DNA of 32,000 bases from the NCBI RefSeq assembly GCF_019464535.1, contig NZ_CP080507.1:1980001-2012000 (forward strand). Reading direction: 5' to 3'. This stretch comes from Horticoccus luteus (GTDB lineage: Bacteria > Verrucomicrobiota > Verrucomicrobiia > Opitutales > Opitutaceae). The position numbers and the translations under genes were made by a program. Positions 10,093 to 28,439 of the stretch are shown in pieces (the stretch's first letter is position 1; each line of letters starts with the position of its first letter). The notes beneath the pieces are model-generated. The model saw only the letters and a list, made by a program, of their open reading frames with translations. It did not search any database and had not been told where the DNA came from.

Positions 10093-10094
10093 GA

Positions 10095-12163: not shown

Positions 12164-12166
12164 GTG

Positions 12167-12199
12167 CGTTGCGCGCGGGGCAAGCCACGCGCGCGAACG
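12167..12199 (+). terminator. GC-rich hairpin downstream of pilT (possible terminator, no U-tract)
   Basis: The sequence is CGTT-GCGCGCG-gggcaagcca-CGCGCGC-g-AACG, giving 4+7 bp with a 1-nt bulge, starting 4 nt after the pilT stop. No T-run follows, so a terminator function is uncertain. Confidence 0.3.
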
Positions 12200-12287
12200 T
12201 GGACGAGGCAGGACGGCGATTCTGGCGGGCGTGCGGTTTTCGGACTTGGTTTTTACTCGCGCGGGCGTTTCTCTACCCGGTTTTCCT

Positions 12288-13193
12288 ATGGCACTGGCAC
12301 TTCTTTTTGCAGGGCAGGGCGCTCAAAAGGTCGGCATGGGCCGGTCGCTCTACGAGCAATCTCCGGCTGCGCGCGCGCGTTTCGATGAAGCGGATCAGGT
12401 ATTGGGTTACAGTCTGACCAAATTGTGCTTCGAAGGGCCGGAGTCCGAGCTCACGCAGACGAAGCACTGTCAGCCCGCGCTCTTCGTGCATGGATTGGCC
12501 TTGGTCGATGCATTGCGCGAACAGGGGAAATTGCCCAACGTGCAATTCGCGCTGGGTCTGAGTCTCGGCGAACTGACGGCTTACGCAGCCGCGGGCGTGT
12601 TTGATTTCGCCACGGGCCTCAAAATTGTCGCTGAGCGCGGACGCTTGATGCAGCAAGCCTGCGAGCAGACTGCCGGCGCCATGGCGGCAGTCATTGGCGA
12701 AGAGCGCGGCCGGGTGGCGGAATTATGCCGTGAGTTCGACGTCGAAGCGGCGAATTTCAACGCGCCGGGACAAATCATCATTTCAGGGGAGAAAGAAAAA
12801 ATCGCGACCGCGGTCGCGGGTGCCAAAGAGCGCGGCATGAAAAAAGTAATCCCCCTCAACGTCGCCGGCGCTTATCACAGCCGGTTGATGGAGTCGGCGC
12901 GCGCGGCGTTTGCGGCCTACCTCGACGGCGTCGCGTTTGCGGCGCCAAAGTTCACAGTTTTCACCAACACCACCGGCCAGGTGATCAGCGAGCCAGCCGC
13001 CTTGAAAGCCGCACTGGTCAAGCAGGTCGTCTCGTCGGTTTTGTGGGAAGACTGCATGCGCAGTGCCGCCGCCGCCGGCGCGACCGAGTTTTGGGAACTC
13101 GGGCCGGGCGGTGTCCTCGCCGGGCTGGCGCGCCGCACTGACAAAAACTGGGCGATCAAATCATTTACCGAATTCTCCGACCTCGCCGCCTGA
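12288..13193 (+). CDS. fabD: Malonyl-CoA:ACP transacylase
   Basis: The ATG at 12288 gives MALALLFAGQGAQKVGMG. The active-site motif is GLSLGELTA (GxSxG). Other matches are NFNAPGQIIISG and VAGAYHS. Confidence 0.9.
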   Translation: MALALLFAGQGAQKVGMGRSLYEQSPAARARFDEADQVLGYSLTKLCFEGPESELTQTKHCQPALFVHGLALVDALREQGKLPNVQFALGLSLGELTAYAAAGVFDFATGLKIVAERGRLMQQACEQTAGAMAAVIGEERGRVAELCREFDVEAANFNAPGQIIISGEKEKIATAVAGAKERGMKKVIPLNVAGAYHSRLMESARAAFAAYLDGVAFAAPKFTVFTNTTGQVISEPAALKAALVKQVVSSVLWEDCMRSAAAAGATEFWELGPGGVLAGLARRTDKNWAIKSFTEFSDLAA

Positions 13194-14992
13194 TGACCGA
13201 CGTCCCGCATACTCGTAATTTTTGCATTATCGCGCACGTTGATCACGGCAAGACGACGCTGTCTGACCGGCTCCTCGAATATACGAACACCGTCGCGCAC
13301 CGCGTGATGACGGACCAGCATCTCGACTCGATGGATCTGGAGAAGGAGCGCGGCATCACCATCAAATCGCACCCGGTGACGATGCTGTATCCGGCCAAGG
13401 ACGGGATCTCGTATCGCCTCAACCTCATGGATACGCCGGGACACGTCGACTTCTCCTATGAGGTGTCGCGGTCGCTCGCGGCGTGTGAAGGCGCCGTGCT
13501 GCTCATCGATGCGGCGCAAGGCGTCGAAGCGCAAACGGTCGCAAACGCCCATTTGGCGTTCAGCCAGAATCTCAAGGTCATCCCGGTCATCAACAAGATC
13601 GACCTGCCCAGCGCGAATCTCGAGCTTTGCCTGCAACAACTCGAGGACATCCTGGCGATTCCGTCCGACGAGGCGATTCTCGCGAGCGGCAAGGCGGGCA
13701 TCGGGATCAGTGACATTCTGGAGGCGGTTGTCGCGCGGGTGCCGCCGCCGCGTTGGACCAATTATCCGCAGACACGGGCGCTGGTGTTCGACTCCCTATA
13801 CGATTCGTATCGCGGCGTCATCGCGTATGCGCGCGTGTTTTCCGGCAGTCTCAAAGCGGGCGACATGGTCGAGTTAATGAGCAACGGCGTCCGCACCGAG
13901 GTGAAGGAAGTCGGCGTGTTTACGCCCAAGATGCAGAAGGTGGCCGAACTCGATGCCGGCGCGGTCGGCTATTTCGTCTCGAACATCAAGGATCCGGCGG
14001 AAATTAAAACGGGTGACACCGTCACGCTGTCGCAGCGGCGCGCCACCGAGATGTTGCCGGGCTACAAGGAAGTGAGGCCGATGGTGTTTTGCGGCCTCTA
14101 TCCGGTGGAAAGTTCCGACTACGAAAAACTGAAGGCCGCGGTGGGCCGGTTGCGGCTCAATGATGCCGCGTTTGTCTATCAGCAGGAGAGCTCGATCGCC
14201 CTCGGATTCGGCTTTCGCTGCGGCTTCCTCGGACTGCTCCACATGGAAATCATCCAGGAGCGGATTCGGCGCGAGCACGACGTCGACATCATCTCGACTT
14301 ACCCGAGCGTCGTTTACCACGTGGTGAAGCACGATGGCGTGGTGATCGAGGTCGACAACCCGGTTAACTTACCCGATCCGGGCACCATCATTGAAATTCG
14401 TGAGCCGATGATCAAAGCGGCTATCCACATCCCGAACGACGCCATGGGCGACATCCTTTCGCTCGTGATGGAGAAACGCGGCTTGGTCGACCACACGGAC
14501 ACCCTCGATGCCACGCGCGTGATGCTCAGTTGCTCGCTGCCGCTCAACGAAATCCTCGTCGATTTCAACGATCGGCTGAAGAGCGTCACGCACGGTTACG
14601 GCTCGATGGATTATGAACTGGGCGAATATCGCGCGGCCGACTTGGTGAAGATGGAAATTTTGGTGAACGCCGACCCCGTCGATGCCTTCGCCACGATCGT
14701 CCACCGGGACAAGGCGGAGGGCAAGGGAAGGGCCTTGTGCGAGAAACTCGCCGATATCATTCCGCCGCAGATGTTCAAAGTCGCGATTCAAGCCGCGATC
14801 GGTGGAAAGATCATCGCGCGCGACAACGTCCGCGAAATGCGCAAGGACGTGACTTCGAAATGCTACGGCGGTGACATCAGCCGCAAACGCAAACTCCTCG
14901 ACAAACAGAAGGAGGGTAAGAAGAAAATGAAACAGTTCGGTCGCGTCTCGATCCCATCGGATGCGTTTATCAAGGTGCTGAAAACCAACTAA
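13193..14992 (+). CDS. lepA: Translation elongation factor 4
   Basis: The G domain has NFCIIAHVDHGKTTLSDRLL, DTPGHVDF and NKID. The LepA-specific C-terminal domain ends in KKKMKQFGRVSIPSDAFIKVLK. Its ATG overlaps the fabD TGA by 1 nt (TGATG). Confidence 0.95.
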   Translation: MTDVPHTRNFCIIAHVDHGKTTLSDRLLEYTNTVAHRVMTDQHLDSMDLEKERGITIKSHPVTMLYPAKDGISYRLNLMDTPGHVDFSYEVSRSLAACEGAVLLIDAAQGVEAQTVANAHLAFSQNLKVIPVINKIDLPSANLELCLQQLEDILAIPSDEAILASGKAGIGISDILEAVVARVPPPRWTNYPQTRALVFDSLYDSYRGVIAYARVFSGSLKAGDMVELMSNGVRTEVKEVGVFTPKMQKVAELDAGAVGYFVSNIKDPAEIKTGDTVTLSQRRATEMLPGYKEVRPMVFCGLYPVESSDYEKLKAAVGRLRLNDAAFVYQQESSIALGFGFRCGFLGLLHMEIIQERIRREHDVDIISTYPSVVYHVVKHDGVVIEVDNPVNLPDPGTIIEIREPMIKAAIHIPNDAMGDILSLVMEKRGLVDHTDTLDATRVMLSCSLPLNEILVDFNDRLKSVTHGYGSMDYELGEYRAADLVKMEILVNADPVDAFATIVHRDKAEGKGRALCEKLADIIPPQMFKVAIQAAIGGKIIARDNVREMRKDVTSKCYGGDISRKRKLLDKQKEGKKKMKQFGRVSIPSDAFIKVLKTN

Positions 14993-15001
14993 AGGTCTCC
15001 C

Positions 15002-16300
15002 GTGTTCGGACTCTTCGCCTCCCAGGAAAAAAAGATGCGGGCCAATGCCGGCAACTGGCTGGAGTTGGCCGACAAGGTCTGGCACTACCGGCGTGACCAA
15101 CTCACGCCGCCCGAGGCGAAAGAACTTCTCGCGCGCACCGAGCACTTACGGCAGGCGGTCAAAGCGAAGGCCGACGCCGCCAAACTGAAGCTCGGTATTG
15201 AAGCGTTGGAGCCGGTGCTGCGGCGCGTCGGAGGAAAGATTTATCCGAAATCCTCGTTGGTGGAAAACGTGGAGTTCTTCGTGGTGGCGGCGATCGTCGT
15301 GCTCGGATTCCGCGCGTATTTCGTCCAGCCATTCAAGATCCCGACCAACTCGATGTGGCCGACGTATTACGGGATGACGGCGGAGAATTTTCCGCCCGGC
15401 AGCGATCTGCCGGGACCGATCGCGCGAGCGTTCCGCTTTGTCGCGTTCGGCGCGCAACGAATCGAAGCGGACGCGCCGGTCGAGGGGCAGGTGACGGCGG
15501 ATTTTTTTGAGAGCGGCGGCATGGCCCGGGCCATGGCGTATAAAGTCGTGAGTGGCCGCTCCTGGCTCGTGCTGCCGACGCAGTTGAAGGAATACACGTT
15601 TTACGTGAACGGCGAACCGACCCACGTGAGAGTGCCGCTGGATTTCCACGACGTGGATTCGGTGGTGCAGGAAACCTATTTCGGCGGGCCGGAGAAATTT
15701 GCGTCTTTCGCGGAGCAGCAGGCTCGGTCTGGTCAACCGGAGAAAGGGGTGCTGAAAATCAGCGACCAAGCCGGTTACGCGCGCGTAGTTCGGCTGCCGC
15801 TGGGCAAGCATGTCACGGCCGGAGCTCCGGTCATCCGTTTCGATCTCATGACGGGCGATCAGCTTTTCGTGGATCGGTTCAGCTATAATTTCGTGCGCCC
15901 CTCGGTCGGTTCGGGGTTTGTTTTCCGCACCGGCCACATTCCGGGAATCGCCAACCAGTTCGGCGACCAGTATTACATCAAACGTCTCGTCGGCGTGCCG
16001 GGAGATACCATCGCGATCAGAGATTACCGGCTTTACCGAAACGGCGTGCCGGAGACAGGCGCTGCGGCTTTTGAGAAGAATGCGCAGCGCGTGGAAAAGT
16101 ATCCCGGTTATCGCGCCGAGGGCAGTCTGGCGAACGGCGGCACGATGACCGTGCCCGCGGACGGGTTTCTGGCGTTGGGCGATAATTCGGCGAACAGCGA
16201 GGACGGACGTTTCTGGGGATACGTGCCGGCGAAAGACGCAGTAGGGCGTCCGCTGTTCATCTATTATCCGTTTACGAAGCGCTGGGGACCGGCGAAGTGA
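15002..16300 (+). CDS. lepB: Signal peptidase I (S26), unusually long
   Basis: S26 boxes are present: PTNSMWPTY (Ser), TGDQLFVDRFSY, YYIKRLVGVPGD (Lys) and LGDNSANSEDGRFWG. The start is GTG at 15002 or ATG at 15035. The classic lepA-lepB synteny is conserved. Confidence 0.88.
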   Translation: MFGLFASQEKKMRANAGNWLELADKVWHYRRDQLTPPEAKELLARTEHLRQAVKAKADAAKLKLGIEALEPVLRRVGGKIYPKSSLVENVEFFVVAAIVVLGFRAYFVQPFKIPTNSMWPTYYGMTAENFPPGSDLPGPIARAFRFVAFGAQRIEADAPVEGQVTADFFESGGMARAMAYKVVSGRSWLVLPTQLKEYTFYVNGEPTHVRVPLDFHDVDSVVQETYFGGPEKFASFAEQQARSGQPEKGVLKISDQAGYARVVRLPLGKHVTAGAPVIRFDLMTGDQLFVDRFSYNFVRPSVGSGFVFRTGHIPGIANQFGDQYYIKRLVGVPGDTIAIRDYRLYRNGVPETGAAAFEKNAQRVEKYPGYRAEGSLANGGTMTVPADGFLALGDNSANSEDGRFWGYVPAKDAVGRPLFIYYPFTKRWGPAK

Positions 16301-16573
16301 ACGCCGCCAAGCGCAACCGCGGCGGCATGTGCGATCGGCCTTTCTCGGGAGAGGGCCAAACTCGGTTTCGAGATTCCCAGACTTTCAGCCAAGGATGAGG
16401 CGCACCAGTCAAAGACCAACTTAACATAATATTTATTGTGCGTCGCATGTTTCGGTCTCATTCGACGCCCCGATAGCACGTAGAAACGGCACGTTTTACC
16501 TACTGGAGTGCAGGCGCCGGAATACCTCACATGCTAACGTATCCTCAAACCCTTCTCGCCAGGGAGCCGCGCT

Positions 16574-18157
16574 ATGTCTGAACTCTCTCAATCTTCGCCT
16601 GCCACGCTCTGGAACTGGCTGAATCGCCGCGCAGCCGGTGTGCTGCTTCATCCGACCGCCCTCCCGGGCGACGGCGGCGTGGGAACCCTCGGTCACCATC
16701 TGGACGATTTTCTCGCGATTCTGGCCGGGGCCGAGTTCAGCTACTGGCAAGTTTGCCCCCTTGGCCCCACCGGATTCGGCGACTCCCCGTATCAATGTTT
16801 TTCGTCGTTCGCGGGAAATCCCTACCTGATCGACCTCGCGCCGTTGGTTGATCTCCGCCTGCTCAGCGCCGACGCCGTGGCGCCTTTGCAACGCTTGAAC
16901 GCAACGCACGTCGATTTCGGCGCGCTCTACACGGAGAAACGTCCGCTATTGTTTGCCGCTCACGCTGCATGGTCCCGGGATCGGACCCTCGCGCTGCCTT
17001 ACGGGGCGTTTAACGCGTTTCGAGCGCGTCACGAACACTGGCTCGAAGGTTTTGCGCTGTTTTCAGCGCTCAAGGATCATTTCGGCGGCGCCCCTTGGTG
17101 GAATTGGCCCGCGGACGCGCGGTCGTTGGCTGCAGCCAAAAAGTCGAACGTTGCGCGCGTGGTGGCCGAACGCGCGGAAGCTTACGCGTTTATTCAATAC
17201 CTGTTCTTTGGGCAATGGGCTCGCGTGCGGGCGCGCGCGGCTGCACTGGGCATCACGATCATCGGCGACACGCCGATTTTCGCCGCGCTCGACAGCGCCG
17301 ATACCTGGAGCCGGCCGGAGCTGTTTCAACTGGACCCGAAGACGCACGCGCCGCTCGCGGTCGCAGGCTGCCCACCCGATTATTTCTCGGCCGATGGCCA
17401 ACTATGGGGCAATCCTCTCTACGACTGGCCCGTGCATGCCGCCGAGGGCTACGCGTGGTGGCTTGAGCGCCTGCGCGCGAATTTCGACCTCTGCGACGTG
17501 GTGCGTATCGACCATTTTCGAGGGCTGGAGGCGTATTGGTCGATTCCCGCCGGGTCGACGACCGCACGGCCAGGACATTGGGTGCCGGGTCCGCGCATGG
17601 AATTTTTCCGCGCGATCCAAGCCGGGTTGCCGCACGCCAAACTTATCGCCGAGGATCTCGGCTTGCTCACCCCTGAGGTGCTCGACTTGCGCGCGGCAAC
17701 GGGGCTGCCCGGCATGGCGGTGCTGCAATTCGCCTTCGGCGGCGGCGCGGACAATTTTTATCTGCCGCACAACGTCGCTCACAACACCGTCGTCTACCCC
17801 GGCACGCACGACAACGACACCACGCGCGGCTGGTATGAATCCGCGGCGGAAAAAACGCGCGATCATGTGCGCCGGTATTTTCGTGTGAGCGGCGACGATA
17901 TAAGCTGGGATTTCGTGCGCGCCGCCTACGCCTCCACCGCGAATCTCGCCATCGTTCCACTACAGGATTTGCTCAGCCTCGGATCGGAAGCGCGTTTCAA
18001 CCAACCCGGCGAATCGCAAGGCAACTGGCAATGGCGCGTCAGCGCCGATCAGCTCGCTCATCTTGCCGCCGACTCCAGCGGCTACCTGAGCGAACTCGCC
18101 GCTCTCTACGGTCGCAACCGCCCGCCTGCGGCGCCGATCACGCCGCACGCGACTTGA
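16574..18157 (+). CDS. malQ: 4-alpha-glucanotransferase (amylomaltase, GH77)
   Basis: Matches include GVLLHPTALPG, SPYQCFSSFAGNPYLID, VRIDHFRG, IAEDLG and YPGTHDNDT. The product is 527 aa. Confidence 0.9.
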   Translation: MSELSQSSPATLWNWLNRRAAGVLLHPTALPGDGGVGTLGHHLDDFLAILAGAEFSYWQVCPLGPTGFGDSPYQCFSSFAGNPYLIDLAPLVDLRLLSADAVAPLQRLNATHVDFGALYTEKRPLLFAAHAAWSRDRTLALPYGAFNAFRARHEHWLEGFALFSALKDHFGGAPWWNWPADARSLAAAKKSNVARVVAERAEAYAFIQYLFFGQWARVRARAAALGITIIGDTPIFAALDSADTWSRPELFQLDPKTHAPLAVAGCPPDYFSADGQLWGNPLYDWPVHAAEGYAWWLERLRANFDLCDVVRIDHFRGLEAYWSIPAGSTTARPGHWVPGPRMEFFRAIQAGLPHAKLIAEDLGLLTPEVLDLRAATGLPGMAVLQFAFGGGADNFYLPHNVAHNTVVYPGTHDNDTTRGWYESAAEKTRDHVRRYFRVSGDDISWDFVRAAYASTANLAIVPLQDLLSLGSEARFNQPGESQGNWQWRVSADQLAHLAADSSGYLSELAALYGRNRPPAAPITPHAT

Positions 18158-19034
18158 GAAACGCCGCTACGCGCTCGACCGCTTCAGGTGCGTCCTCGAG
18201 CAGATAGTGGCCGGCGTCGTTGTAGCGCTCCACTTGGGCCGTCGGCAGACGGCGCTGCCACTCGGCGAGAAAATGCGGATCGAAACAAAAATCGCGCATG
18301 CCCCAGGCGAGGAGCACTTGCTTGTCCGCCAAGGCCGCGACGCCGGCTTCCGCCCGTTGCAACGCCGCCCAACTGCGATGGCCGGGCTTCATCGGAATAT
18401 CGCGCACGAAGGCGTTGACGGCGACGCGGCTCGCCCACGAGGAATACGGCAGCAAATACCCGCGCTTCTCCATCGGTGTGAGCGAGCGCCGATGCATGGC
18501 CATACTCGTGGCCGGCGCGGCAAAACCGTTGGCGCCGCGGACCAGCAGCGGACCAATCACGGGCAACTTGCAGAGCGCGATGCGGGCGGGAATCCGGTTC
18601 AGCGGAAACGCCGCGGTGTTCATCACGACGACCCGGTCGAGTTGCGCTGCATGGTCCGCCGTCCAGCCCATGCCAATCGCCCCGCCCCAATCATGAACCA
18701 CCAGGTGCACCTTTTTTAAACCCAGGTGGATCACCAAAGCTTCAACGTCGCGCACGCGGCCGGCCAGCGTATAGTCGTAATCTTCCGGTTGGTCGGAGAG
18801 CCCCATACCCACGTGGTCCGGCGCCACGCAACGCATCGTCGGAGCGAGTTCTTGAATCAGGCGACGGTAAAAAAACGACCACGTCGGATTGCCATGCAAC
18901 ATGAGCACGGCCTCGTCGCAACGCGGTCCTTCGTCGACATAGCTCATCGTCGCGCCGCCGGGCGTGGAAAAATGCCGCGGCTCGAACGGATACGCCGCGC
19001 GCAACCAGTCGGGAACTTCGCGATGCGTCACCAT
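18138..19034 (-). CDS. oleB: Alpha/beta hydrolase, haloalkane-dehalogenase-like (OleB-type)
   Basis: Motifs are LHGNPTWSFFYR, APDHVGMGLSD and the nucleophile elbow with Asp, VVHDWGGAIG. Its start overlaps the stop of the OleA-type gene by 7 nt. The OleB assignment rests on family and context, not on alignment. Confidence 0.6.
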   Translation of the reverse strand: MVTHREVPDWLRAAYPFEPRHFSTPGGATMSYVDEGPRCDEAVLMLHGNPTWSFFYRRLIQELAPTMRCVAPDHVGMGLSDQPEDYDYTLAGRVRDVEALVIHLGLKKVHLVVHDWGGAIGMGWTADHAAQLDRVVVMNTAAFPLNRIPARIALCKLPVIGPLLVRGANGFAAPATSMAMHRRSLTPMEKRGYLLPYSSWASRVAVNAFVRDIPMKPGHRSWAALQRAEAGVAALADKQVLLAWGMRDFCFDPHFLAEWQRRLPTAQVERYNDAGHYLLEDAPEAVERVAAFLKSRAA

Positions 19035-20053
19035 TCGAGTGCCAGCATCAGGCAGTTCAACCCGCTGCCGATTCCGAGCAATCCCACGCGATCGCCTTCG
19101 CGCACCGCGCCCGCACCCACGGCGGCCGAAAGTGTGGCGGGCAGCGCGACGGAGCCGGTGTTGCCGAGCGTTTCAAAAGTCGAAAAGTCCTTCGCGAGAT
19201 CGAGTCCCAGCGCGTCGTAGAGTGCGCGGCGATGCGTGCGCCCGACCTGATGGCAAATGAAGCGATCGAAGTCGCTGCCCTGCTCCGCCGCGAAACGCGT
19301 CCACGTGTTCTTCGCGAGCGCTACGCCTGCGACGAGCAATTGTTCCGCATCGGTCTGCATGGCGAGCGCATCGGCCCCATGGCTATCGCCCTGGCAAAGT
19401 TCGCTGTGTTCGGTCGCCGCGCCTGCCACGCCGCCCAGCAAACGATGTGCGGGGCCGCGCACGAGATCGCGATGACACACCATCGCCGCCACCGCGCCGG
19501 AGCCGATCGTGAGATTGGCGAAGAACGGTTTGATTTCGTTTCGCGAGAGCGGTTGTTCCAGGAGCGTGCGCAGCGTCTGCTCCACGAGGGGGCGCCCATT
19601 TTCCCCGGCGACCACCATTGCGCAACGAATCTGCCCCGACTCGATCATCGCCGCGGCGACGCAAAGTGCATTGAGGAATCCGAGGCACGCATTCGACACA
19701 TCGAAAATTTGCGTCGTCGCGGGCAGCCCGATTTTGCGGTGAGCGAAGGAGGCCGTGGCCGGTTCGAGCATGTCGCGCGACACCGCCGCGTGGATGAAAA
19801 GTTCCACGTCGGCCGCGCGCAAATTCGATTCTGCCAGCACCGCGCGTCCCGCTGCCGCACTCGCATCCGACGGCCGCCAGCCTTCCGGCCACAGGCGGCG
19901 TTCACGAATGCCGGTCATCAACTCCAGCCGCCCGGCGGGCAATTTCAAACGCTCGTAAAGCGGCCTCAGGCGCTCTTCGATTTCGTTCGAAGTTAAAACC
20001 TCGTCGGGCATCGCGACCGCGATGGATTCCAGGCAGACGTGAGTGAAACGCAT
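19028..20053 (-). CDS. oleA: OleA-type thiolase (FabH-like, head-to-head Claisen condensing enzyme family)
   Basis: The ATG at 20053 gives MRFTHVCLES, although the ORF opens at 20158. Motifs track what I recall of Xanthomonas OleA. These are LTSNEIEERLRPLYERL, AVSRDMLEPATAS (the Glu-base motif), FDVSNACLGF (Cys), ICHQVGRTH, GNTGSVALP and the C-terminal LLGIGSGLNCLMLALEW. It differs from housekeeping FabH (HQAN, GNTSAAS). Confidence 0.7.
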   Translation of the reverse strand: MRFTHVCLESIAVAMPDEVLTSNEIEERLRPLYERLKLPAGRLELMTGIRERRLWPEGWRPSDASAAAGRAVLAESNLRAADVELFIHAAVSRDMLEPATASFAHRKIGLPATTQIFDVSNACLGFLNALCVAAAMIESGQIRCAMVVAGENGRPLVEQTLRTLLEQPLSRNEIKPFFANLTIGSGAVAAMVCHRDLVRGPAHRLLGGVAGAATEHSELCQGDSHGADALAMQTDAEQLLVAGVALAKNTWTRFAAEQGSDFDRFICHQVGRTHRRALYDALGLDLAKDFSTFETLGNTGSVALPATLSAAVGAGAVREGDRVGLLGIGSGLNCLMLALEW

Positions 20054-20060
20054 GACGTCT

Positions 20061-20885
20061 TTAACGCTCCGGCCGCATCGCGAGCCGGATGATTTCCTGA
20101 TCGAAATAATTGCTGCCCAGCCCGGCGTCGACGACGAGCGTCGTTCCATTGATGCCACTGCTGCGTTCGCTCAAGAGGAAGACCGCGGCATCGGCTACTT
20201 CCTGTGTCGCGAGATTGCGTTTTCGAAACGTGAGTTTTTCCGCGTAGAGATAGCTTTCAATGTAGCCCGGAATGCCCGCGGAGGCGCTCGTTTTCAGCGG
20301 CCCGGCGCCGATGACGTTCACGCGAATTTCGCTCGTCGCTGACAAGGACTTGGCGAGGAAACGCGTGGCGGATTCGAGGGCGGCCTTGATGGGCCCCATG
20401 TAGCCGTAGTTGTCGGGCGTGACCTGCAACGATGAAATGCCGATGGTCACGATGGAGGCGTGGCGCGCGAGATGGGGTTTGAACGCCCGGGTGATCTCCA
20501 CGAGGGAGAACGCCGACACCGCCGTGGCTTGGAGAAAGTCGGTCCGTTTGGTCTCGTCGAACGGACGGAATCCCTCGCTGTAATTGGCAAACGCGATCGA
20601 GTGCACGAGCCCGTGCAAAGGGGCCAAACCTGCGGCTGCCACTTCGGCGGCGAGACGCGCCGCGGCGCCTTCCTCTTCCACGTCGCAGACGAAGACCGGC
20701 TTGTCGGCGAGCAAGGTCTCCAGCGATTTACGACGCGCTTCCGAGCGCACGCTGTAAATGACGCGGGCGCCCTGCTCTTCCAAGGTCTTTGCGATGTGCC
20801 AGGCGACGCTTTTGCGGTTGGCCACACCGAGGACGAGAAACGTCTGGCCGGCGAGATGGAGGAAGTCTGGCATCGCGTGGCTCAC
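20061..20885 (-). CDS. fabI: FabI-type enoyl-ACP reductase (SDR)
   Basis: Matches are LVLGVANRKSVAWHIAKTL, VHSIAFA, the Tyr-x6-Lys motif in NYGYMGPIKAALE, and VNVIGAGPLKT. The GTG at 20885 overlaps the fabZ-type stop by 4 nt. An alternative ATG lies at 20873. Confidence 0.8.
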   Translation of the reverse strand: MSHAMPDFLHLAGQTFLVLGVANRKSVAWHIAKTLEEQGARVIYSVRSEARRKSLETLLADKPVFVCDVEEEGAAARLAAEVAAAGLAPLHGLVHSIAFANYSEGFRPFDETKRTDFLQATAVSAFSLVEITRAFKPHLARHASIVTIGISSLQVTPDNYGYMGPIKAALESATRFLAKSLSATSEIRVNVIGAGPLKTSASAGIPGYIESYLYAEKLTFRKRNLATQEVADAAVFLLSERSSGINGTTLVVDAGLGSNYFDQEIIRLAMRPER

Positions 20886-21343
20886 GCGTTCGGCGCGGGA
20901 GCTTGGCCGTCAGGGGTTTTCCACGCGACGGAGAAATCGACATTCAACACCCGCGTGCCATTGGCCTTCTTGATGCTGCCGGTGAGCATGGTGAAGCCGC
21001 CGAGGGTGGTTTTTTCCTTCACCGCGAGAAGAATGGTATCGCCCGGATAAATCGGGCTCCGGAACCGCACATCGCTTATTTTCGCAATCAAGGGCACACC
21101 CTCTCCCGGTTTTCCGCCCGCGGCTTGCGCTTTCAATGCCATGTAGCACGCCGCGGTCTGGAAGACCGCCTCGCACAGCAACACGCCAGGCGTGATCGGA
21201 GCACCAGGATAATGCCCGCGGTAGAAATCCTCGTCGGCCCGCCATGTGCGTTTGGCCGTCAATCCGTCTGCCTCTTGGGTGACAATTTCGTCGACAAACA
21301 AAAACGGCGGACGGTGCGGAATGAGGTCGGTGACGGTGGGCAT
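20882..21343 (-). CDS. fabZ: FabZ/FabA-type 3-hydroxyacyl-ACP dehydratase (hotdog fold)
   Basis: The ATG is at 21343, although the ORF opens at 21472. Matches are IPHRPPFLFVDEI and FYRGHYPGAPITPGVLLCEAVFQT, which carry the catalytic His and Glu. It starts 1 nt after the upstream gene's stop. Confidence 0.82.
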   Translation of the reverse strand: MPTVTDLIPHRPPFLFVDEIVTQEADGLTAKRTWRADEDFYRGHYPGAPITPGVLLCEAVFQTAACYMALKAQAAGGKPGEGVPLIAKISDVRFRSPIYPGDTILLAVKEKTTLGGFTMLTGSIKKANGTRVLNVDFSVAWKTPDGQAPAPNA

Positions 21344-21344: not shown

Positions 21345-22799
21345 TTAGGAAGCGGCGGCGGGAGCGTGGGGTTTGGCGGCGTAGAGGACCTTGTCGATTT
21401 TGTTGGCGACGATAACGCCATAATTAATCGTGCCGAGCCAGCCCGACATGATGATGCCAACGGAGCCGGCATGATAGAGTCCGGGCAGCATGGCGGGCAA
21501 TTCCATGGAGACTTTCAGGCCTTCGAATTTGGTGCCAAACGAAGTGCCGCCGGTATGCGTTGTGTAGCGCTCGATCGTCCGCGGCGTGGCGGCCTCCTTC
21601 CAATCGATTTTTTCGCCCACCCCGGGGATAAACGTCTCCAACGCGGCCAGTGACTCGTCGATGAGCCGCTGCTTGTTGCGCTCATAGTCCTCCTCGCTCA
21701 ACCCCGCCCAGTCCGGATAACAGCCATTTAACGACGCGACGACTGTGTAGCGTTCCGAGCCGGGGCGCGTGTCGGGATAATAGACGGAAAACGTGCGACT
21801 CGTCGTGCGAAAGTCCGTGAGTTCCGTGCTGCTGAATTCGGCACTCGCCGAGGTGAAGACGAGATCGCCGATGTGCGGAATCGATTCCCCTTTTCGAATG
21901 CCGAAATAGACTTGGCAGGAGCTCGAGTTAATCCGCACCGCCTGCGCCTCGGCCACGTAGTCGGAGGGGAAGTTTTCTGCGCCCGCGAGACGAAAGATCG
22001 TGTTCTTAATGTTCGCGTTCGAGAGCACCGCCTTCGCGCGGATGATCCGCCCACCTTTGGCGACGATGCCGGCGACGACTTTGTGGCCGTTGCGCTCCTC
22101 CACGAGGATGCGTTCAACGAGCACATGCTTGCGGCATTCAACGCCGTTCCTTTTCAGCTCTGCGATCATCTTCGCGATGAGGAGATCTGATCCGCCCCGA
22201 AAGGTGTAGACCCCGGAGCCCATGAAATTCGAAAACACGATGCCGAACGTGATCGCTGGGTCCTCGAGCGTAGAGCCGTTGGCGTAAGCGATTGGCTCCA
22301 TCAGCAAACGGTGCACATCCTTTCGTCCCGGGAAAAAGCGTTCCAGCATCTCGCCCGTCGTTTCGGGATTGTTGTCGTAGAAATTCATCGACCGCAGGTG
22401 GTCGTAGAACTTCTCGACCACGGTGCGTTCGAGGCGGAATTGCTCGAGGAGCACGCGGGTGTAGTCCTCACGGGTGAACGTCGTCCAGACGTCCATCTGC
22501 GGATTCACAAATCGGATGTCTTTCAGTTGCACGATCGAGTCGGCGATCTCCTTCGTCCAATACTTGCGGCACGATTTGATCATGCCCACCGGGAAGCCAT
22601 GCAGCGAAATATCGAAAATATGCCCGCCCTTGCGCGTGAACCAAGTGGCCAACCCGCCGTATTGGTAATGGTGCTCCAAGAGGAGCACACGGTGGCCGGC
22701 TTTCCCCAGATAATTGGACCCCGTCAATCCGCCCAAGCCACTGCCGATGACGATTACGTCATACTCGTCAGCAACACCTTTGAGCCAGTCATACGCCAT
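21345..22799 (-). CDS. CrtI/phytoene-desaturase-family NAD(P)/FAD-dependent oxidoreductase (copy 2)
   Basis: The ATG at 22799 gives MAYDWL..., although the ORF opens at 22838. The dinucleotide fold is [38 protein letters not shown]. The C-terminal flavin-contact motif is [16 protein letters not shown]. The substrate is unknown. Confidence 0.75.
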
Positions 22800-22870: not shown

Positions 22871-24229
22871 CTAACGGTCTTTATCCGTTCGATTGTCGCG
22901 ACGTGCGTCCGCCCTCTCCCCTCGATCCGGCGGAGGCGCGCTCCGCGGCGGCGGCGCGGTCACCGGCCGCATCGCCGGCGGCGGCGCCACCGGAGCAGGA
23001 CGCGGTTGCGGCACAAAAGCCGGGCGCGGCGTCGGCGTTAGCTCCGGGGCAGCGGGCGCGCGGACGGTGGCGCTGGGACCGGGCGCGCTCACCACGGGCC
23101 GCGTGGTGTTGAAATGAAGATTGCCGCGGTTGCTATCGGGCCGCGGAGAAACATCGGGCCGCGACGGGCGCACCGGGCCGCCAACGGACGGCGGTCGCGC
23201 GATCGTGGGCGCAGGAGGCATTTTCGAATCCGCGTTGCCGCTGCTGTGCGGCTGATCGCCGCCTCGTGACCACCGTCGCACGGAAGATGCGCCGTTTGGA
23301 TTCGGTTGAGCCGTGGCAGGAGCAAGGCGGGCATTACCCCAACTCGCCGCCGGCCGGGCGGGATGCGCCTCGTGCTCGACCGGGCCAGGCGGCAGCGCCC
23401 GCGGTCCGACCACACGATCGCCATAACGAAAACCGGGGCGCGGCCGCACGCGGTTGGCCGGTGGACGCCAACGTTGCGGTGTGCCGTGGGGCGGCCCGAC
23501 GATCACCGGACCGGCGTGATGCCGCACGTGATAATCGTGTCGGCGCCAGTCCACGCCGCGCCAGAGCACCCGGCGATGCCAGTCCAAATCGAAATCCAGC
23601 CACGACCCGACCGAATAACCGATGCCAAACGTTAAAAACGGCCCGGCGTAGCCAAACGGCGGCGGTCCGTAAACGAGATCATAATTGTAACGCGGCACAT
23701 AAATCACGTCGGGCGTGGCCGGTTCGATGTAGATGATCTGATCACGCACGACCACTTCCTGTTGCGGAGTATCCTTCAACGCACCAGTGGCGCGCGCTTG
23801 AGTGCGCATACGCTGCACGGCGTTCATCACGTCGGTGGACTGCGCGGCGAACGCGAGGCCGAGCTCACGCGTCCATTCGAGGTTTTCATCCATCCATTTG
23901 ACGACCTCGGGATAGTGCACCAGCGCCTTCACGCTTTCATCCCATGGCTGATCTTCGATCGCCGCCGAGCCATCACTGTTCGCCAGAAACCGCGCTGCGA
24001 GCGTGACATCGGTCGGCACCGTGGAGGCCGGCAGGATCAATGCGACCAAGACATCGGGATAGAGCGCGATGGGGGCCACGAGCTTGTCCAATTCCTCGGG
24101 CGTTCGCGGGGATTCATCGCTGACGTCCTGCGCATTCACAAATCCGAGAGAAAACGCCGCACAAACGGCGAAGAGAAACCGAGTTAGCGCAAAGCGAGAA
24201 CGGCGGACGCGGGTCGGAGCGAGGGGCAT
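22871..24229 (-). CDS. Secreted DUF3300-family protein with long Pro/Arg/Ala-rich C-terminal tail
   Basis: I recognise the DUF3300 signature LDKLVAPIALYPDVLVALILPASTVPTDVTLAARFL...WDESVKALVHYPEVVKWM. The signal peptide is RRSRFALTRFLFAVCAAFSLGFVNA. I prefer the ATG at 24229, with alternatives at 24277 and 24298. The last ~200 aa are low-complexity P/R/A-rich. Confidence 0.75.
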   Translation of the reverse strand: MPLAPTRVRRSRFALTRFLFAVCAAFSLGFVNAQDVSDESPRTPEELDKLVAPIALYPDVLVALILPASTVPTDVTLAARFLANSDGSAAIEDQPWDESVKALVHYPEVVKWMDENLEWTRELGLAFAAQSTDVMNAVQRMRTQARATGALKDTPQQEVVVRDQIIYIEPATPDVIYVPRYNYDLVYGPPPFGYAGPFLTFGIGYSVGSWLDFDLDWHRRVLWRGVDWRRHDYHVRHHAGPVIVGPPHGTPQRWRPPANRVRPRPGFRYGDRVVGPRALPPGPVEHEAHPARPAASWGNARLAPATAQPNPNGASSVRRWSRGGDQPHSSGNADSKMPPAPTIARPPSVGGPVRPSRPDVSPRPDSNRGNLHFNTTRPVVSAPGPSATVRAPAAPELTPTPRPAFVPQPRPAPVAPPPAMRPVTAPPPRSAPPPDRGERADARRDNRTDKDR

Positions 24230-24325
24230 GCTTAGGGGCGACACGACTTTCGGGGGTTTGTGCGCAAAATATGTCATACCCGATGAGACGCGACTCATTC
24301 CCGCCGATTACGGTATTCCCCGCCC

Positions 24326-25771
24326 TTACCCCGCGCGCGGCTGCAGAATGTGGTAATTCGCCATCGAGATCCCACTCAGCATCGCGCCGACGATGCCCAA
24401 AAACCCTTGGTCCGTGCCGCAGAGATAAACATTGGCCAACGGCGTGTTCCCGTCGCGTTTTTTATCCGGCGAACCGTAGATGGCTCCGCCGAAGTGCCCG
24501 GTGAACGTCGTGATCGTGCGCGGCGTAAACATGTCCGTCGCCACGGTGGCTTTGGCGAGAACGTCATCTTCCACCGCCGGCAGAAATCGGCGGGCGCTTT
24601 GCTGCACCTCGGAAAACCAACGCGTTTTCTGCTCTCGATAGACATTCTCCGGCAGCGTGGCCCAGCGGTCGTAGTTGGCCAGGCAGGTGCAGCGCAGCAG
24701 GCCTTCGGGCAGATGCTGCCCTGCTTCAAATACGAAATTATTCGGCAGACAAATCACGCCGCTGCGCACGTCGACCGCCTCGTCAGGGCGGACGTAGTTG
24801 AATTCCGGCGAGTCGTTGAAAAACACAATCGTGTCCTCGCCCCACCCGAGCGCCGCAGGCTCTTGATTCAGCACGGTAATCGTCTCGACGAACGACAGCC
24901 GGCCCACCGCAGGTAGCTGGCGGCCTCTGATTTCGGTCTCCGGTGGCTGAAACAACGCCAGCGTTTCTGGGCCGCCGATCGAGGATAACACATGGTCGGC
25001 GGTGACCTCCGCACCGTCATCGAGCACGAGCGTTGTCGCGCGTCCATCTTGGGCGATGATCCGGCTCACGCCGCATTTCATACGCCGTTCGCCGCCCGCC
25101 GCCCGAAATTTGTCCAGCAACACGCGCAACACAACGCGCACACCCTCGAGCGGGCGGGCAAACCCTTCGAGAAAGAGCGCCTTGAACATGATCGCGAACT
25201 GCCCGAACTCCATGTCGCGCTCCTGTGCGCTGCCATAATACATGAGCGGGCAAAACAACATCTCCTCGAGGAGCGGGTCCGTTACAAAGTCGCGGACGAC
25301 CGCGCGGGCGCTGCGCGGCTGCGCATTGAGCGACACATCGTCGTAACTGCGAAGATAGGCGACCAGGCGAGCGAAACCATCCCGCTGCGCCGGGAATCGC
25401 GCCGCCACCTCGCTTTCGAAGAGCGCAAAGTCATTCGTAAACCGTAGCTTCACCTCGCCGCGCGGCCCAAAAGCGATTCGCGAACCGCGTTGCGGACAAA
25501 GGGCCAACTCATCGCGATCAATGCGCAACTGCCGCAGAATTTTCCCCAGCGGCGTTCCCTTCACACCGGGCGGCACGTAGTTCGTCATCGCGTGCAGGCC
25601 GACATCGAATTTTCGCCCCGCGATACTGTAGAAACTGTTCAGCCCGCCGACGGCGTTGTGCCGCTCGAAGATACAGACGCGCCGGCCAAAATGCGCGAGT
25701 CGGATGCCCGCCGCCAAGCCCGACATGCCGGCTCCGATGATCGCCACGTCGTAATGGGAGCTCGTGTTCAT
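24326..25771 (-). CDS. CrtI/phytoene-desaturase-family NAD(P)/FAD-dependent oxidoreductase (copy 1)
   Basis: The dinucleotide fold is YDVAIIGAGMSGLAAGIRLAHFGRRVCIFERHNAVGGL. The C-terminal motif is VYLCGTDQGFLGIVGAMLSG. It is highly diverged from copy 2 outside these motifs. Confidence 0.75.
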   Translation of the reverse strand: MNTSSHYDVAIIGAGMSGLAAGIRLAHFGRRVCIFERHNAVGGLNSFYSIAGRKFDVGLHAMTNYVPPGVKGTPLGKILRQLRIDRDELALCPQRGSRIAFGPRGEVKLRFTNDFALFESEVAARFPAQRDGFARLVAYLRSYDDVSLNAQPRSARAVVRDFVTDPLLEEMLFCPLMYYGSAQERDMEFGQFAIMFKALFLEGFARPLEGVRVVLRVLLDKFRAAGGERRMKCGVSRIIAQDGRATTLVLDDGAEVTADHVLSSIGGPETLALFQPPETEIRGRQLPAVGRLSFVETITVLNQEPAALGWGEDTIVFFNDSPEFNYVRPDEAVDVRSGVICLPNNFVFEAGQHLPEGLLRCTCLANYDRWATLPENVYREQKTRWFSEVQQSARRFLPAVEDDVLAKATVATDMFTPRTITTFTGHFGGAIYGSPDKKRDGNTPLANVYLCGTDQGFLGIVGAMLSGISMANYHILQPRAG

Positions 25772-25838: not shown

Positions 25839-26099
25839 TCAGCCCTGCTTCTGGGCGTTGAACTTCGGCGTAAGATACGCCGCGGAACTGTCGAGTGAGG
25901 CCAGTTGCTGGTAATCCGCCTCCGGCACCTCGATGCCGTGGCGTTTGCGCAGCTCCATCACGATGTCGAGAAAGTCCATGCTATCGAGCTGGAGTTGGTC
26001 GCGCAGGCGCACGTCCGGTTTCACATTCGAAAGGTCTTCATCGGGCGCGATGTCCGCGATGATATCGAGCACGACCTGCTTGCATTCGTCGGTGGTCAT
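25839..26099 (-). CDS. Acyl carrier protein, specialised (non-AcpP) type
   Basis: The product is 86 aa. The phosphopantetheine site is LQLDSMDFLDIVMELRKRHGIEVP. This resembles AcpXL/NodF-like dedicated ACPs (LDSLDFLDIV) rather than housekeeping AcpP (GADSLDTVELV). Confidence 0.85.
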   Translation of the reverse strand: MTTDECKQVVLDIIADIAPDEDLSNVKPDVRLRDQLQLDSMDFLDIVMELRKRHGIEVPEADYQQLASLDSSAAYLTPKFNAQKQG

Positions 26100-26120: not shown

Positions 26121-27359
26121 TCAGGGGACAAAACGTTTCACAATCAACGTGGAATTGATGCCGAGCATCCCGAATGAATTGTTCAGGATCACGTCGACCT
26201 GCCCCACCCGCTGCGGTTCGTTCAACACCAGGTTGGGCAACGCACATTGCGGGTCGAGGGCATCGACGTTGATCGTGGGATGCACCACCAAGTCATCGAA
26301 CGACGGCAGATTGCCCGCGAGTTCCAGTGCGCCCGCCGCCCCCATGCAGTGGCCGATAAAACTCTTGGTGTTGTTGATGTAAGTATCAGGACAACCTTCG
26401 CCAAACACGGCGCGAATCGCCTCGCACTCCTGAATGTCGCCCAGCGGCGTCGCCGTGGCGTGCGTGTTGACGATATGGACATCGCGTGGCCGGAGGCCGG
26501 CATGGGCGATCGACTTGCGCACGCATTCAGCCTGCCGCACCGGATTGGGCAGCACGTAATCGCTGGCGTCTGAGTTCACCGCATAGCCCGCAATCTCCGC
26601 GTAAATCTTCGCTCCCCGGGCCAAGGCGTCGTCAAGCCGCTCCAGCGTATAAAGCCCCCCGCCTTCGGATACGACGATGCCGTTGCGCGCCAGATCAAAC
26701 GGCCGTGAAGCCTTCGCGGGATCGTCGTTGGTGGCGAGCGCGCCCTGCGACTTGAAGCCGGCGAAAATCCCAAACGTGTGAATGCTTTCGCTCACGCCAC
26801 CGCAAATCGCGAAATCCACCTCACCGAGGCGCAACATTTGCGTGGCGTGGATCAGGCCCATGTTCCCCGCCGCGCAGGCCGCGCCGATCGTGTAAGCCGG
26901 ACCCGTCACGCCAAGATTGAGCGACGTCTCTCCCGCCGGGTTGTTGGCGACGGTGCGCGGGTTGTGATAATGGGACCAGAACTTGGTGTCGTAGTTGAAC
27001 TTCGAGATGTTAAAAATCTCATTCTCCGTCTCGACGTTGCCGTGTTCGGTGCAGCCGATGTAAATGCCCACGCGATCCTTCGGAAGCCCCGCGAAGTTGA
27101 CCTGACTGTCGGCCAGCGCCTCGCGCGCGCAGTAAATCGAAATCGAGCCCGCGCGCGTGCCTACGCGAACTTCCTTTTTCGTCTGATACTTCAGCGGGTC
27201 GTAATGGCAGACGCCGGCCAGAAGTGAGCCCATGTAACGCACATCGAGACGTTCGATGCCGGAAACGCCCGTCAGCAAATTACGACGAAACTCGGCCAAG
27301 GTGTTGCCGTTGGGAGCCGTGAGACCGACCCCGGTGATGACGATGCGCGGGAGCTGCAT
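26121..27359 (-). CDS. Beta-ketoacyl-ACP synthase, KAS I/II (FabF/FabB-like) elongating type
   Basis: The ATG at 27359 gives MQLPRIVITGVGL and a 412-aa product. The 670-aa ORF in the track is an upstream run-on antisense to galE. The Cys-His-His triad sits in TIGAACAAGN, NTHATATPLGD and KSFIGHCMGAAG. Confidence 0.88.
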   Translation of the reverse strand: MQLPRIVITGVGLTAPNGNTLAEFRRNLLTGVSGIERLDVRYMGSLLAGVCHYDPLKYQTKKEVRVGTRAGSISIYCAREALADSQVNFAGLPKDRVGIYIGCTEHGNVETENEIFNISKFNYDTKFWSHYHNPRTVANNPAGETSLNLGVTGPAYTIGAACAAGNMGLIHATQMLRLGEVDFAICGGVSESIHTFGIFAGFKSQGALATNDDPAKASRPFDLARNGIVVSEGGGLYTLERLDDALARGAKIYAEIAGYAVNSDASDYVLPNPVRQAECVRKSIAHAGLRPRDVHIVNTHATATPLGDIQECEAIRAVFGEGCPDTYINNTKSFIGHCMGAAGALELAGNLPSFDDLVVHPTINVDALDPQCALPNLVLNEPQRVGQVDVILNNSFGMLGINSTLIVKRFVP

Positions 27360-27434
27360 GAAAAGAGAGGCCGAAATCGCTAGCCAACCCCGCCGTGAAA
27401 GCAATACAAGCCTCGCCGTCTTTTGCCTAAGCTT

Positions 27435-28439
27435 ATGAACGTTCTGGTCATCGGAGGTGCCGGTTACATTGGAAGTCATTGCGTGCGACAGCTTGTCGCC
27501 GCCGGACACCGCCCCGTCGTGCTCGATAATCTCGTCTACGGTCATCGCGCCGCCGTGCCTGCCGGTGTGCCGCTTCACCAAGTCGACCTTGGCGACGAGT
27601 CCGCGGTCGGCCGCATCCTGGTCGACGAAAAGATCGAGCTGGTGATGCACTTCGCCGCTTATTGCTACGTCGGCGAATCTGTCACGGATCCGCTGAAATA
27701 TTATTTCAACAACGTGGTGGCGCCCGTCCATCTGCTGAATGCGATGCTCACCGCGGGCGTGAAGAAATTCGTTTTCTCCTCCACGTGCGCCACCTACGGC
27801 GTGCCTGCGTCCCTGCCGATCGTCGAGACGCTGCTCCAAGCCCCGATCAATCCCTACGGGCAGACGAAGCTCGACGTCGAAAACCTCCTCAAGAGCCTCG
27901 CCCAAGCGCACGGATTGAGTTTCGCCGCCTTCCGCTACTTCAACGCCGCCGGTGCCTCGGAAGATGCATCCATCGGTGAAGACCATGACCCGGAAACCCA
28001 CCTCATCCCTGTCGCCATCGACGTTGCGACGGGCAAGCGCCCTCACCTGCAGCTTTTCGGAACCGATTATCCCACCCCGGACGGCACCTGCCTGCGAGAC
28101 TACGTGCATGTCGACGATCTGAGTCGCGCGCACATCGCTGCATTCGATCGGCTGGCCACGCCCGGCACGCAGCTTTTCTACAATCTCGGCACCGGCCGCC
28201 CGTCATCGAACCGCGAAGTCATACGCGCGGTGGAAAAAGCCACGGGCCGCACGATCACGGTGATCGAGAGCCCGCGTCGCGCGGGCGATCCGCCGGCGTT
28301 GTTCGCCGATTCCAGCAAAGCCCAACGCGAACTCGGTTGGACGATCAAGTTTCCCGATATCGACTCCATCGTCGCCACTGCGTGGAAATGGCACCGCGCG
28401 CATCCGCAAGGCTACGCTGATCGCGCGCCGCGCCAGTAA
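27435..28439 (+). CDS. galE: UDP-glucose 4-epimerase
   Basis: The ATG at 27435 gives MNVLVIGGAGYIGSH. Matches are YVGESVTDPLKYYFNNV, SSTCATYG, PINPYGQTK (YxxxK), FRYFNAAGA, DGTCLRDYVHVDDL and RRAGDPPALFADSSKAQRELGW. Confidence 0.9.
   Translation: MNVLVIGGAGYIGSHCVRQLVAAGHRPVVLDNLVYGHRAAVPAGVPLHQVDLGDESAVGRILVDEKIELVMHFAAYCYVGESVTDPLKYYFNNVVAPVHLLNAMLTAGVKKFVFSSTCATYGVPASLPIVETLLQAPINPYGQTKLDVENLLKSLAQAHGLSFAAFRYFNAAGASEDASIGEDHDPETHLIPVAIDVATGKRPHLQLFGTDYPTPDGTCLRDYVHVDDLSRAHIAAFDRLATPGTQLFYNLGTGRPSSNREVIRAVEKATGRTITVIESPRRAGDPPALFADSSKAQRELGWTIKFPDIDSIVATAWKWHRAHPQGYADRAPRQ

Follow-up and report, generated by a model that had tools for sequence, protein, structure and literature searches.

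Bacteria make long-chain membrane olefins mainly by the Ole pathway, which has attracted interest in connection with biofuels and β-lactone chemistry. In Xanthomonas campestris and Stenotrophomonas the pathway consists of the proteins OleA, OleB, OleC and OleD (OleA structures 3ROW and 4KU2), and the acyl chains used by the xanthomonad proteins are reported to come from ordinary type II fatty acid synthesis (FAS; PMC6463001). Here we describe a related locus in a 32-kb stretch of the chromosome of Horticoccus luteus, a member of the Opitutaceae (Verrucomicrobiota); the stretch covers positions 1,980,001 to 2,012,000 of contig NZ_CP080507.1 and is referred to as the window, while L- and P-numbers denote the loci and proteins with which it was compared. 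The predicted OleA of this locus is 40% identical to its Xanthomonas/Stenotrophomonas counterpart and has the same Cys/His/Asn triad and trans-subunit Glu, the predicted OleB is 43–47% identical and contains the same motifs, and oleA precedes oleB on the same strand. Unlike the Xanthomonas and Stenotrophomonas systems, the locus lacks oleC and oleD, and comprises dedicated genes for a flavoenzyme, a dehydratase (DH), an enoyl reductase (ER), a ketosynthase (KS) and an acyl carrier protein (ACP).

A second group of described systems, the Pfa-linked ole clusters, makes the polyunsaturated hydrocarbon C31:9. These clusters, either of the Shewanella/Photobacterium type or of the type found in the Planctomycetes–Verrucomicrobia–Chlamydiae (PVC) group and the Deltaproteobacteria (L153 and L157), resemble the present locus in that dedicated acyl-chain synthesis is encoded directly before oleA. 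In addition, the clade formed by L153, L157 and L163 is sister to the OleA proteins of the Opitutaceae, and the OleA of Pfa-linked clusters has been proposed to be fed from the ACP of the synthase (PMC6463001). They differ from the present locus, which encodes discrete type II-like proteins and two CrtI/RetSat-like flavoenzymes but no megasynthase, and which lacks the oleC, oleD and phosphopantetheinyl transferase (PPTase) genes that follow their oleB. The oleACD clusters for lipstatin and nocardiolactone likewise combine an OleA-family thiolase with only part of the four-gene set (PMC7064751), but these keep oleC and oleD without oleB and stop at the β-lactone, which is the reverse of the situation described here. 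The locus in the window probably represents one half of a split olefin pathway, in which a dedicated module supplies the acyl chains and oleC and oleD are located at another place in the genome.

Family assignment of the thiolase

The thiolase gene, oleA (20053..19028, − strand), encodes a protein of 341 residues. It scores 437 bits against the OleA-containing NCBIfam equivalog model NF006720/PRK09258, which has a cut-off of 285 bits, whereas the FabH models give at most 106 bits against cut-offs of 249–437 bits (best case 106 versus 249). The best match in the PDB is OleA from X. campestris (XcOleA; 3ROW), with an E-value of 2e-66 and 228 bits, compared to 80 bits for the best FabH and 42 bits for CorB. 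In the alignment with XcOleA (40% identity) the catalytic residues Cys143, His285 and Asn315 and the OleA-specific Glu117 of the LEP motif (X. campestris numbering) are conserved as C123, H268, N298 and E97. The identity to E. coli FabH amounts to 25%; the sequences of E. coli FabH and of the haloalkane dehalogenase DhaA used for comparison were checked against the PDB and verified. In a neighbour-joining distance tree without bootstrap support, rooted on E. coli FabH, the Opitutaceae thiolases fall inside the OleA clade, far from FabH. Many close relatives carry the Joint Genome Institute (JGI) label 'acyl-CoA:acyl-CoA alkyltransferase', and the nearest named relatives are assigned to 'Opitutaceae bacterium' and 'Opitutus sp.'.

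The thiolase is thus a genuine member of the OleA family. An initial annotation of the window had called it OleA-type from its motifs, all of which were found (SRDMLEP, SNAC, HQVGRTH, GNTG and LLGIGSGLNC...W), and this assignment is now backed by the NF006720 score, the match to 3ROW, the catalytic residues and the placement in the tree; the phylogeny that it had suggested as a check puts the enzyme in the OleA clade and not within FabH. By family, the protein should join two long acyl chains head to head in a non-decarboxylative Claisen condensation.

Exact look-ups of the window OleA and OleB gave no recorded entry. No match was obtained in a tblastn search of plasmids with the window OleA, and a profile search of genome contigs, using an alignment of the window OleA with XcOleA, retrieved only distant OleA proteins of 38–44% identity, none of them from Opitutaceae; the loci retrieved did supply canonical OleB, OleC and OleD sequences. 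OleA homologues that are 40% identical to that of the window were observed in two metagenome-assembled genomes (MAGs), one from Enterobacterales (L004) and one from Roseiflexaceae (L011); no OleB, OleC or OleD was found in their flanks, which covered 10 kb on each side in L004 and ~4 kb downstream in L011.

Family assignment of the hydrolase

The adjacent gene, oleB (19034..18138, − strand), codes for an α/β-hydrolase of 298 residues (Abhydrolase_1, 98 bits). With the haloalkane dehalogenases of the HLD-III (8CKP) and HLD-II (DhaA) types the protein shares the fold, the Asp nucleophile, the His base and the Asn/Trp pair. In contrast to these enzymes, however, it scores below all three haloalkane dehalogenase family cut-offs, and the position of HLD-II Glu130 is occupied by the Asn of an xNTAA motif, as in all 29 OleB proteins compared. 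It is 31% identical to DhaA (126 bits), but 48% identical (261 bits) to OleB from the canonical L003 cluster, and it is 40–50% identical to the OleB proteins at ~130 loci with canonical clusters. The motifs HGNPTW, HDWGG, xNTAA and GHY are common to the hydrolase and 29 of the 29 OleBs, the protein clusters with the OleBs, and in many cases its close relatives are labelled 'cis-3-alkyl-4-acyloxetan-2-one decarboxylase' by JGI. The initial annotation had described a haloalkane-dehalogenase-like hydrolase with an HDWGG Asp nucleophile and had read it as OleB-type; the OleB-wide signature and the 48% identity bear this out, and by these comparisons the hydrolase is a genuine member of the OleB family, for which the function predicted by family is that of a β-lactone decarboxylase.

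Organization of the operon and its conservation in Opitutaceae

oleA and oleB are the last genes of a five-gene operon. It starts with the gene for FADox2 (22799..21345, −), a CrtI/CrtISO/RetSat-like flavin adenine dinucleotide (FAD) oxidoreductase of 484 residues with Amino_oxidase and NAD_binding_8 matches. This is followed by the genes for a FabZ/ApeI-like hotdog dehydratase (21343..20882, −; 153 residues; FabA domain, 68 bits) and a predicted FabI-family enoyl reductase paralogue (20885..20061, −; 274 residues; adh_short_C2, 202 bits), and then by oleA and oleB. The junctions are, in this order, 1 nt, a 4-nt overlap, 7 nt (between the stop codon of the FabI-like gene and the ATG of oleA) and a 7-nt overlap. 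The latter had already been noticed in the initial annotation, and the same seven bases, ATGGTGA, are read at the junction here: oleA ends with GAA TGG TGA and oleB opens with ATG GTG ACG. Downstream, malQ (16574..18157, +), encoding a 4-α-glucanotransferase (Glyco_hydro_77, 537 bits; NF011080, 645 bits versus a cut-off of 477), converges on oleB. The tail-to-tail overlap measures 20 nt, in line with the original view that the operon ends at oleB against a converging and overlapping malQ. The malQ gene is a convergent neighbour which bounds the operon and lies outside the system.

The order FADox2, hotdog, FabI-like, oleA and oleB, together with the convergent malQ, is present in all five Opitutaceae lineages compared, i.e., the window, L001/L002, L083/L084, L165/L166 and L167. 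The OleA and OleB identities among these lineages are only 62–88%, and the arrangement is therefore not due to chance. OleA is 80–88% identical throughout the lineages and OleB 62–76%; with respect to the window, the identities in L001 and L083/L084 are 85–86% for FADox2, 73–83% for the hotdog protein, 82–84% for the FabI-like protein and 80–84% for OleA. The 7-nt overlap between oleA and oleB is repeated in the gene calls of L083, L165 and L167. In all five diverged lineages the catalytic motifs of the OleB family are intact, as would be expected only where the β-lactone substrate continues to be produced.

In three of the five lineages, namely the window (24326–27359, −), L083/L084 (1376–4423 in L083) and L167 (832–4032), a second group of genes is situated a few kb upstream of the operon and codes for a KS, an ACP and another CrtI-like FAD oxidoreductase (FADox1). 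In the window the trio consists of a FabF-like KS paralogue (27359..26121, −; 412 residues, with the N- and C-terminal ketoacyl-synt domains), the ACP (26099..25839, −; 86 residues, with a DSMD serine motif) and FADox1 (25771..24326, −; 481 residues; Amino_oxidase, 66 bits). Between L083 and the window the KS proteins are 88% and the ACPs 91% identical (the ACP with a PP-binding Pfam match), and FADox1 is 75% identical in both L083 and L084. The insert between the trio and the operon varies, and is formed by a DUF3300 gene in the window and elsewhere by an AP-endonuclease-2-type gene with either a 203-residue open reading frame (ORF) or a rhomboid gene.

Annotation pipelines often label proteins such as OleA and OleB '3-oxoacyl-ACP synthase III', 'haloalkane dehalogenase' or 'alpha/beta fold hydrolase', and on such labels the gene pair would be an ordinary FabH that lies by chance beside an ordinary haloalkane dehalogenase. 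This explanation is refuted. The thiolase passes the OleA-type model while remaining far below every FabH cut-off, and both its low identity to E. coli FabH and its position in the OleA clade contradict a FabH assignment. The hydrolase fails the three dehalogenase cut-offs and, like the OleBs, has an Asn in place of the catalytic Glu of HLD-II. Finally, a chance neighbourhood does not agree with the conserved 7-nt overlap and with a gene order that is kept in five lineages.

The accessory genes

The proteins encoded next to OleA and OleB score well below the models for their housekeeping equivalents. For the FabI-like protein the NCBIfam FabI models give at most 178 bits against cut-offs of 299–477, and the best FabI in the PDB scores 141 bits, although the Tyr-x6-Lys motif of enoyl reductases is retained (NYGYMGPIK). 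The FabZ-like protein reaches at most 89 bits with FabZ models that have cut-offs of 113–155, with 77 bits for the best FabZ in the PDB, and among its relatives ApeI-like and ApeP-like Pfam matches occur. The FabF-like KS scores 307 bits against the fabF model (cut-off 494), and its best FabF match in the PDB is 241 bits. Scores below the housekeeping equivalog cut-offs mark these three genes as dedicated paralogues, and not as core FAS genes.

The two flavoenzymes are only 24% identical to each other. FADox2 obtains 102 bits with a carotenoid isomerase model that has a cut-off of 587, and its matches to solved structures are weak (at most 28 bits) and mostly confined to the N-terminal nucleotide-binding region. 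Its family is small, with 179 representatives at E<1e-30 among 1.84 billion. In one protein of 625 residues, P0376, which is encoded on a 5849-bp JGI metagenome contig, a flavoenzyme of the FADox2 family (52% identity to the window protein) is naturally fused to a FabZ-like 3-hydroxyacyl-ACP dehydratase. This fusion suggests that the products of the FADox2 and FabZ-like genes (22799..21345 and 21343..20882) may act together.

The initial annotation had recognized the genes upstream of oleA as FabI/FabZ-type, a description that stands, but had treated them as unrelated neighbours, whereas they form a conserved unit with oleA and oleB. In gene content the unit resembles modules for anaerobic synthesis of unsaturated fatty acids, namely FabX with FabF in Helicobacter and FabN, FabO and FabI in Enterococcus. 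In these modules, as at the present locus, paralogous FabZ-, FabF- and FabI-like genes are found together, in one case with a flavoenzyme, and they serve to place double bonds in the chain while it is elongated; the resemblance concerns gene content only. Helicobacter FabX depends on flavin mononucleotide, unlike the flavoenzymes encoded here, which belong to the FAD-dependent CrtI/RetSat superfamily. The Enterococcus gene set is described in PMC9671860.

Search for oleC and oleD

The initial annotation reported no OleC or OleD at the locus, and this holds for the entire window. Nothing was found in the 32 kb at E<1e-5 by tblastn with OleC and OleD from a canonical cluster. Of the hidden Markov models (HMMs) built for this analysis from 13 OleC and up to 12 OleD sequences, the OleC model did not match the window, and the sole match of the OleD model was GalE at 67 bits, versus 250–394 bits for the OleD homologues at L168 and L170. 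Pfam scans of the large ORFs of the window revealed no AMP-dependent ligase and no OleD-type reductase. Thus oleB has no adjoining or fused oleC, the next gene being the oppositely oriented malQ, and the window contains no AMP-binding gene. A 'high-confidence' oleA has been defined as one with at least two of oleB, oleC and oleD in its neighbourhood (PMC7064751); here only oleB adjoins.

The galE gene (27423..28439, +) was considered as a hidden oleD and rejected, since its product scores 408 bits with the NCBIfam GalE model (cut-off 262) and only 58 bits with the OleD model. With its weak OleD and 3-beta-HSD matches, galE could be misread as oleD by a loose OleD model in neighbourhood screens.

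A metagenome profile search with the OleC alignment yielded 80 loci. Among these, the OleC of L143 was examined as an Opitutaceae candidate in view of a tetranucleotide correlation of r = 0.94 with the window, but its relatives are Gemmataceae and Isosphaeraceae, and the tetranucleotide likeness is misleading. Two orphan oleC–oleD loci, L112 and L128, likewise proved to be from Gemmataceae and Pelobacter propionicus and not from Opitutaceae. In L112 the detached oleC–oleD pair (7147–9968) adjoins pgk, gap and mdh, in L128 the pair (9908–12609) is followed by a likely PPTase gene, and in L143, from a planctomycete, a solitary oleC (9977–11599) lies among MoxR-type and dockerin genes. Split ole loci therefore already exist in other bacteria whose genomes have oleC and oleD, as exemplified by the Gemmataceae and P. 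propionicus.

The module and the ole genes in other lineages

At almost every genome locus outside the Opitutaceae that has enough flanking sequence (L003–L082), the genes oleB, oleC and oleD stand downstream of oleA. In the neighbour-joining tree the sister clade of the Opitutaceae OleA proteins comprises L157, L153, L163, L107, L093 and L139, which show oleABCD wherever the flank suffices. In L157, L153 and L163 an ORF of 1760–2231 residues stands directly before oleA, and oleB, oleC and oleD come after it. The large ORF of L153 contains KS, chain-length factor, acyltransferase and FabA-type DH domains; it is preceded by an ORF with ketoreductase (KR) and polyketide synthase-type dehydratase (PS-DH) domains, and a PPTase gene is situated after oleD. 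Judged by these domains, the arrangement in L153 is of the pfa–ole type.

Accessory genes of the same types as in the window are found near ole genes in two further lineages. In L170 (GC content 69%) one uninterrupted strand carries the genes for KS, ACP, FADox1, FADox2, KR, the hotdog protein, the FabI-like protein, OleB and OleC, while OleD is encoded ~4 kb further on; OleC and OleD score 257 and 394 bits, respectively, with the HMMs. The trio of KS, ACP and FADox1 occupies positions 7004–9956 in a cluster that extends over 7004–21130. No OleA homologue was found within the 21-kb locus of L170, which derives from a long-read assembly with many frameshifts. In L168 (GC content 44%) the genes for a FADox, a FabG-like KR, a hotdog protein and a FabI-like protein lie ~4 kb from a cluster of oleA, oleB, oleC-like and oleD-like genes. 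The contig of P0375 carries FADox, KR, hotdog and FabI-like genes as well. The accessory gene types of the window form a recurrent module; two independent lineages, L168 and L170, have it in physical linkage with OleB, OleC and OleD.

These two loci bear directly on the idea that the FabI-like protein, the FabZ-like protein and the flavoenzyme replace OleD and OleC and handle the OleA product by reduction, dehydration and redox steps, in a lactone-independent route to an alkene or an α-branched acid. Such a replacement would agree with the position of the three genes, which are found where pathway genes are expected and are translationally packed with oleA; nevertheless, we judge it to be very unlikely. 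These three gene types, together with a FabG-like KR, stand alongside OleC and OleD homologues in L168 and L170, and hence no substitution takes place there. Moreover, the module is accompanied by a KS and an ACP, an indication of chain building before OleA, and it is also present without nearby ole genes, in L171 and on the P0375 contig. A further objection is chemical: the product of OleA is a free acid, whereas enzymes of the FabZ and FabI types require thioesters as substrates.

Proposed pathway

In the split pathway that we favour, the KS, ACP, DH, ER and flavoenzymes would build or modify a special, probably unsaturated acyl chain carried by the dedicated ACP. The module would in this way fill the role of the Pfa-type polyunsaturated fatty acid synthase that is encoded directly before oleA in the sister clusters of the PVC type. 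OleA would join two such chains head to head to give a 2-alkyl-3-ketoacid, which OleD (a reductase) and OleC (the β-lactone synthetase), both presumably encoded elsewhere on the 4.3-Mb chromosome, would convert into a β-lactone. Decarboxylation of the β-lactone by OleB would then yield a long-chain cis-olefin for the membrane. There is a precedent for an OleA that accepts acyl-ACP directly from a dedicated synthase, as this has been argued for the Shewanella enzyme (PMC6463001); in the same source OleB, OleC and OleD are described as forming one complex.

The initial annotation had left two options, either oleC and oleD elsewhere or a different chemistry of the OleA–OleB pair. The evidence favours the first of these without proving it. 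The location of oleC and oleD elsewhere is favoured because the OleB signature is intact, because L168 and L170 have the module together with OleC and OleD, and because of two published observations: oleC has been reported in Opitutaceae MAGs (PMC10176705), and a passage of PMC7158056, citing Sukovich 2010, counts the Verrucomicrobia among the phyla reported to make Ole-type olefins. Split loci in other genomes and the complete oleABCD sets of the sister clade point in the same direction. The original report of verrucomicrobial olefins, by Sukovich et al. in 2010, is said to concern the Opitutaceae strain TAV2.

Several observations weigh against the split pathway. OleC and OleD were undetected in the 32-kb window and in ~10 kb on each side in the four other Opitutaceae lineages. 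A protein search with the OleC of L143 gave planctomycetal sequences only, none from this chromosome. Usually oleB adjoins oleC or is fused with it, and a separation of oleB from oleC is the less common kind of split. The OleB of the window is 62–65% identical to its relatives in L001, L083, L165 and L167, versus 72–76% among these relatives. No claim of relaxed selection on OleB is made, as in pairs from Luteimonas the identities of OleA and OleB differ to a similar extent. A strict tie of the module to ole genes is contradicted by L171, which carries the FADox2–hotdog pair with no ole gene nearby, and in the Opitutaceae the module lacks the KR that is present in L168, L170 and the P0375 contig. 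The roles of both FADox1 and FADox2 are putative. We infer the presence of oleC and oleD in this genome, in addition to which there is the MAG annotation of a single paper.

If oleC and oleD had been lost from the Opitutaceae, the 2-alkyl-3-ketoacid made by OleA would decarboxylate to a long-chain ketone or be processed in another way, and OleB would be re-purposed as a thioesterase, a hydrolase or a decarboxylase acting on the OleA product or on acyl-ACP. The failure to find OleC and OleD within reach in five lineages is what such a loss would produce, ketones from OleA alone are known (PMC6463001), and within the operon OleB shows the lowest conservation, above all in the lineage of the window. 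The combination of the module with OleB and OleC but no adjacent OleA in L170 also suggests that these genes combine flexibly. However, every motif of the OleB family is retained, the accessory module is found together with OleC and OleD in L168 and L170, and ole loci are also split in genomes that possess oleC and oleD. The oleC genes in Opitutaceae MAGs (PMC10176705) and the olefins reported for a verrucomicrobium, according to the passage in PMC7158056, argue against a loss as well. We consider the loss of oleC and oleD to be rather unlikely, and retain the split pathway as the probable one.

A more specific proposal concerns the chemistry of the module. FabZ-, FabF- and FabI-like gene sets elsewhere serve the synthesis of unsaturated fatty acids, and because of this an O2-independent desaturation or isomerization by the flavoenzymes in the course of elongation can be guessed at. 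Tentatively, then, an undescribed dissociated (type II) module, consisting of KS, ACP, DH, ER, sometimes KR and two flavoenzymes and encoded both here and in at least two other lineages, might make unusual acyl-ACPs specifically for OleA, the chains probably being unsaturated by an O2-independent route, and a flavoenzyme might be a new acyl-ACP desaturase or isomerase; we regard this as possible, but do not consider it the likeliest outcome. The literature searched contains no description of a conserved oleA–oleB operon with a flavoenzyme, DH and ER module, of the recurrence of this module, extended by a KS, an ACP and another flavoenzyme, near OleB, OleC and OleD in unrelated lineages, or of such a module in place of a Pfa megasynthase. 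On the other hand, ole genes and olefins have already been reported in Verrucomicrobia, and an oleA–oleB pair without nearby oleC and oleD is not new in kind.

Other features of the window

Between the ACP and FADox1 genes a strong terminator-like hairpin is present at 25794–25816 (−), with a 10-bp stem that includes 8 GC pairs, followed by TTTTTATT; transcription of the KS and ACP genes may be separate from that of FADox1, or attenuated at this hairpin. The DUF3300 protein (24298..22871, −; 475 residues), whose gene separates the two halves of the cluster, has a long proline-rich C-terminal half. The galE gene is divergently adjacent to the KS gene both in the window and in L083 (321–1313, −). 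ARAGORN and Rfam detect a single RNA gene in the window, a tRNA-Lys with anticodon TTT at 7213–7287 (−).

Implications

The organization of this locus indicates that oleA and oleB can detach from oleC and oleD and join a dedicated chain-building module. Genome surveys as a rule demand two or more of oleB, oleC and oleD beside an oleA; by this standard the whole Opitutaceae clade would be missed, or its proteins misnamed as FabH and a dehalogenase. Should the flavoenzymes indeed tailor the acyl chains, they would determine the membrane hydrocarbon of these abundant soil and freshwater bacteria, and would constitute a new enzymatic handle for the production of unsaturated hydrocarbons.

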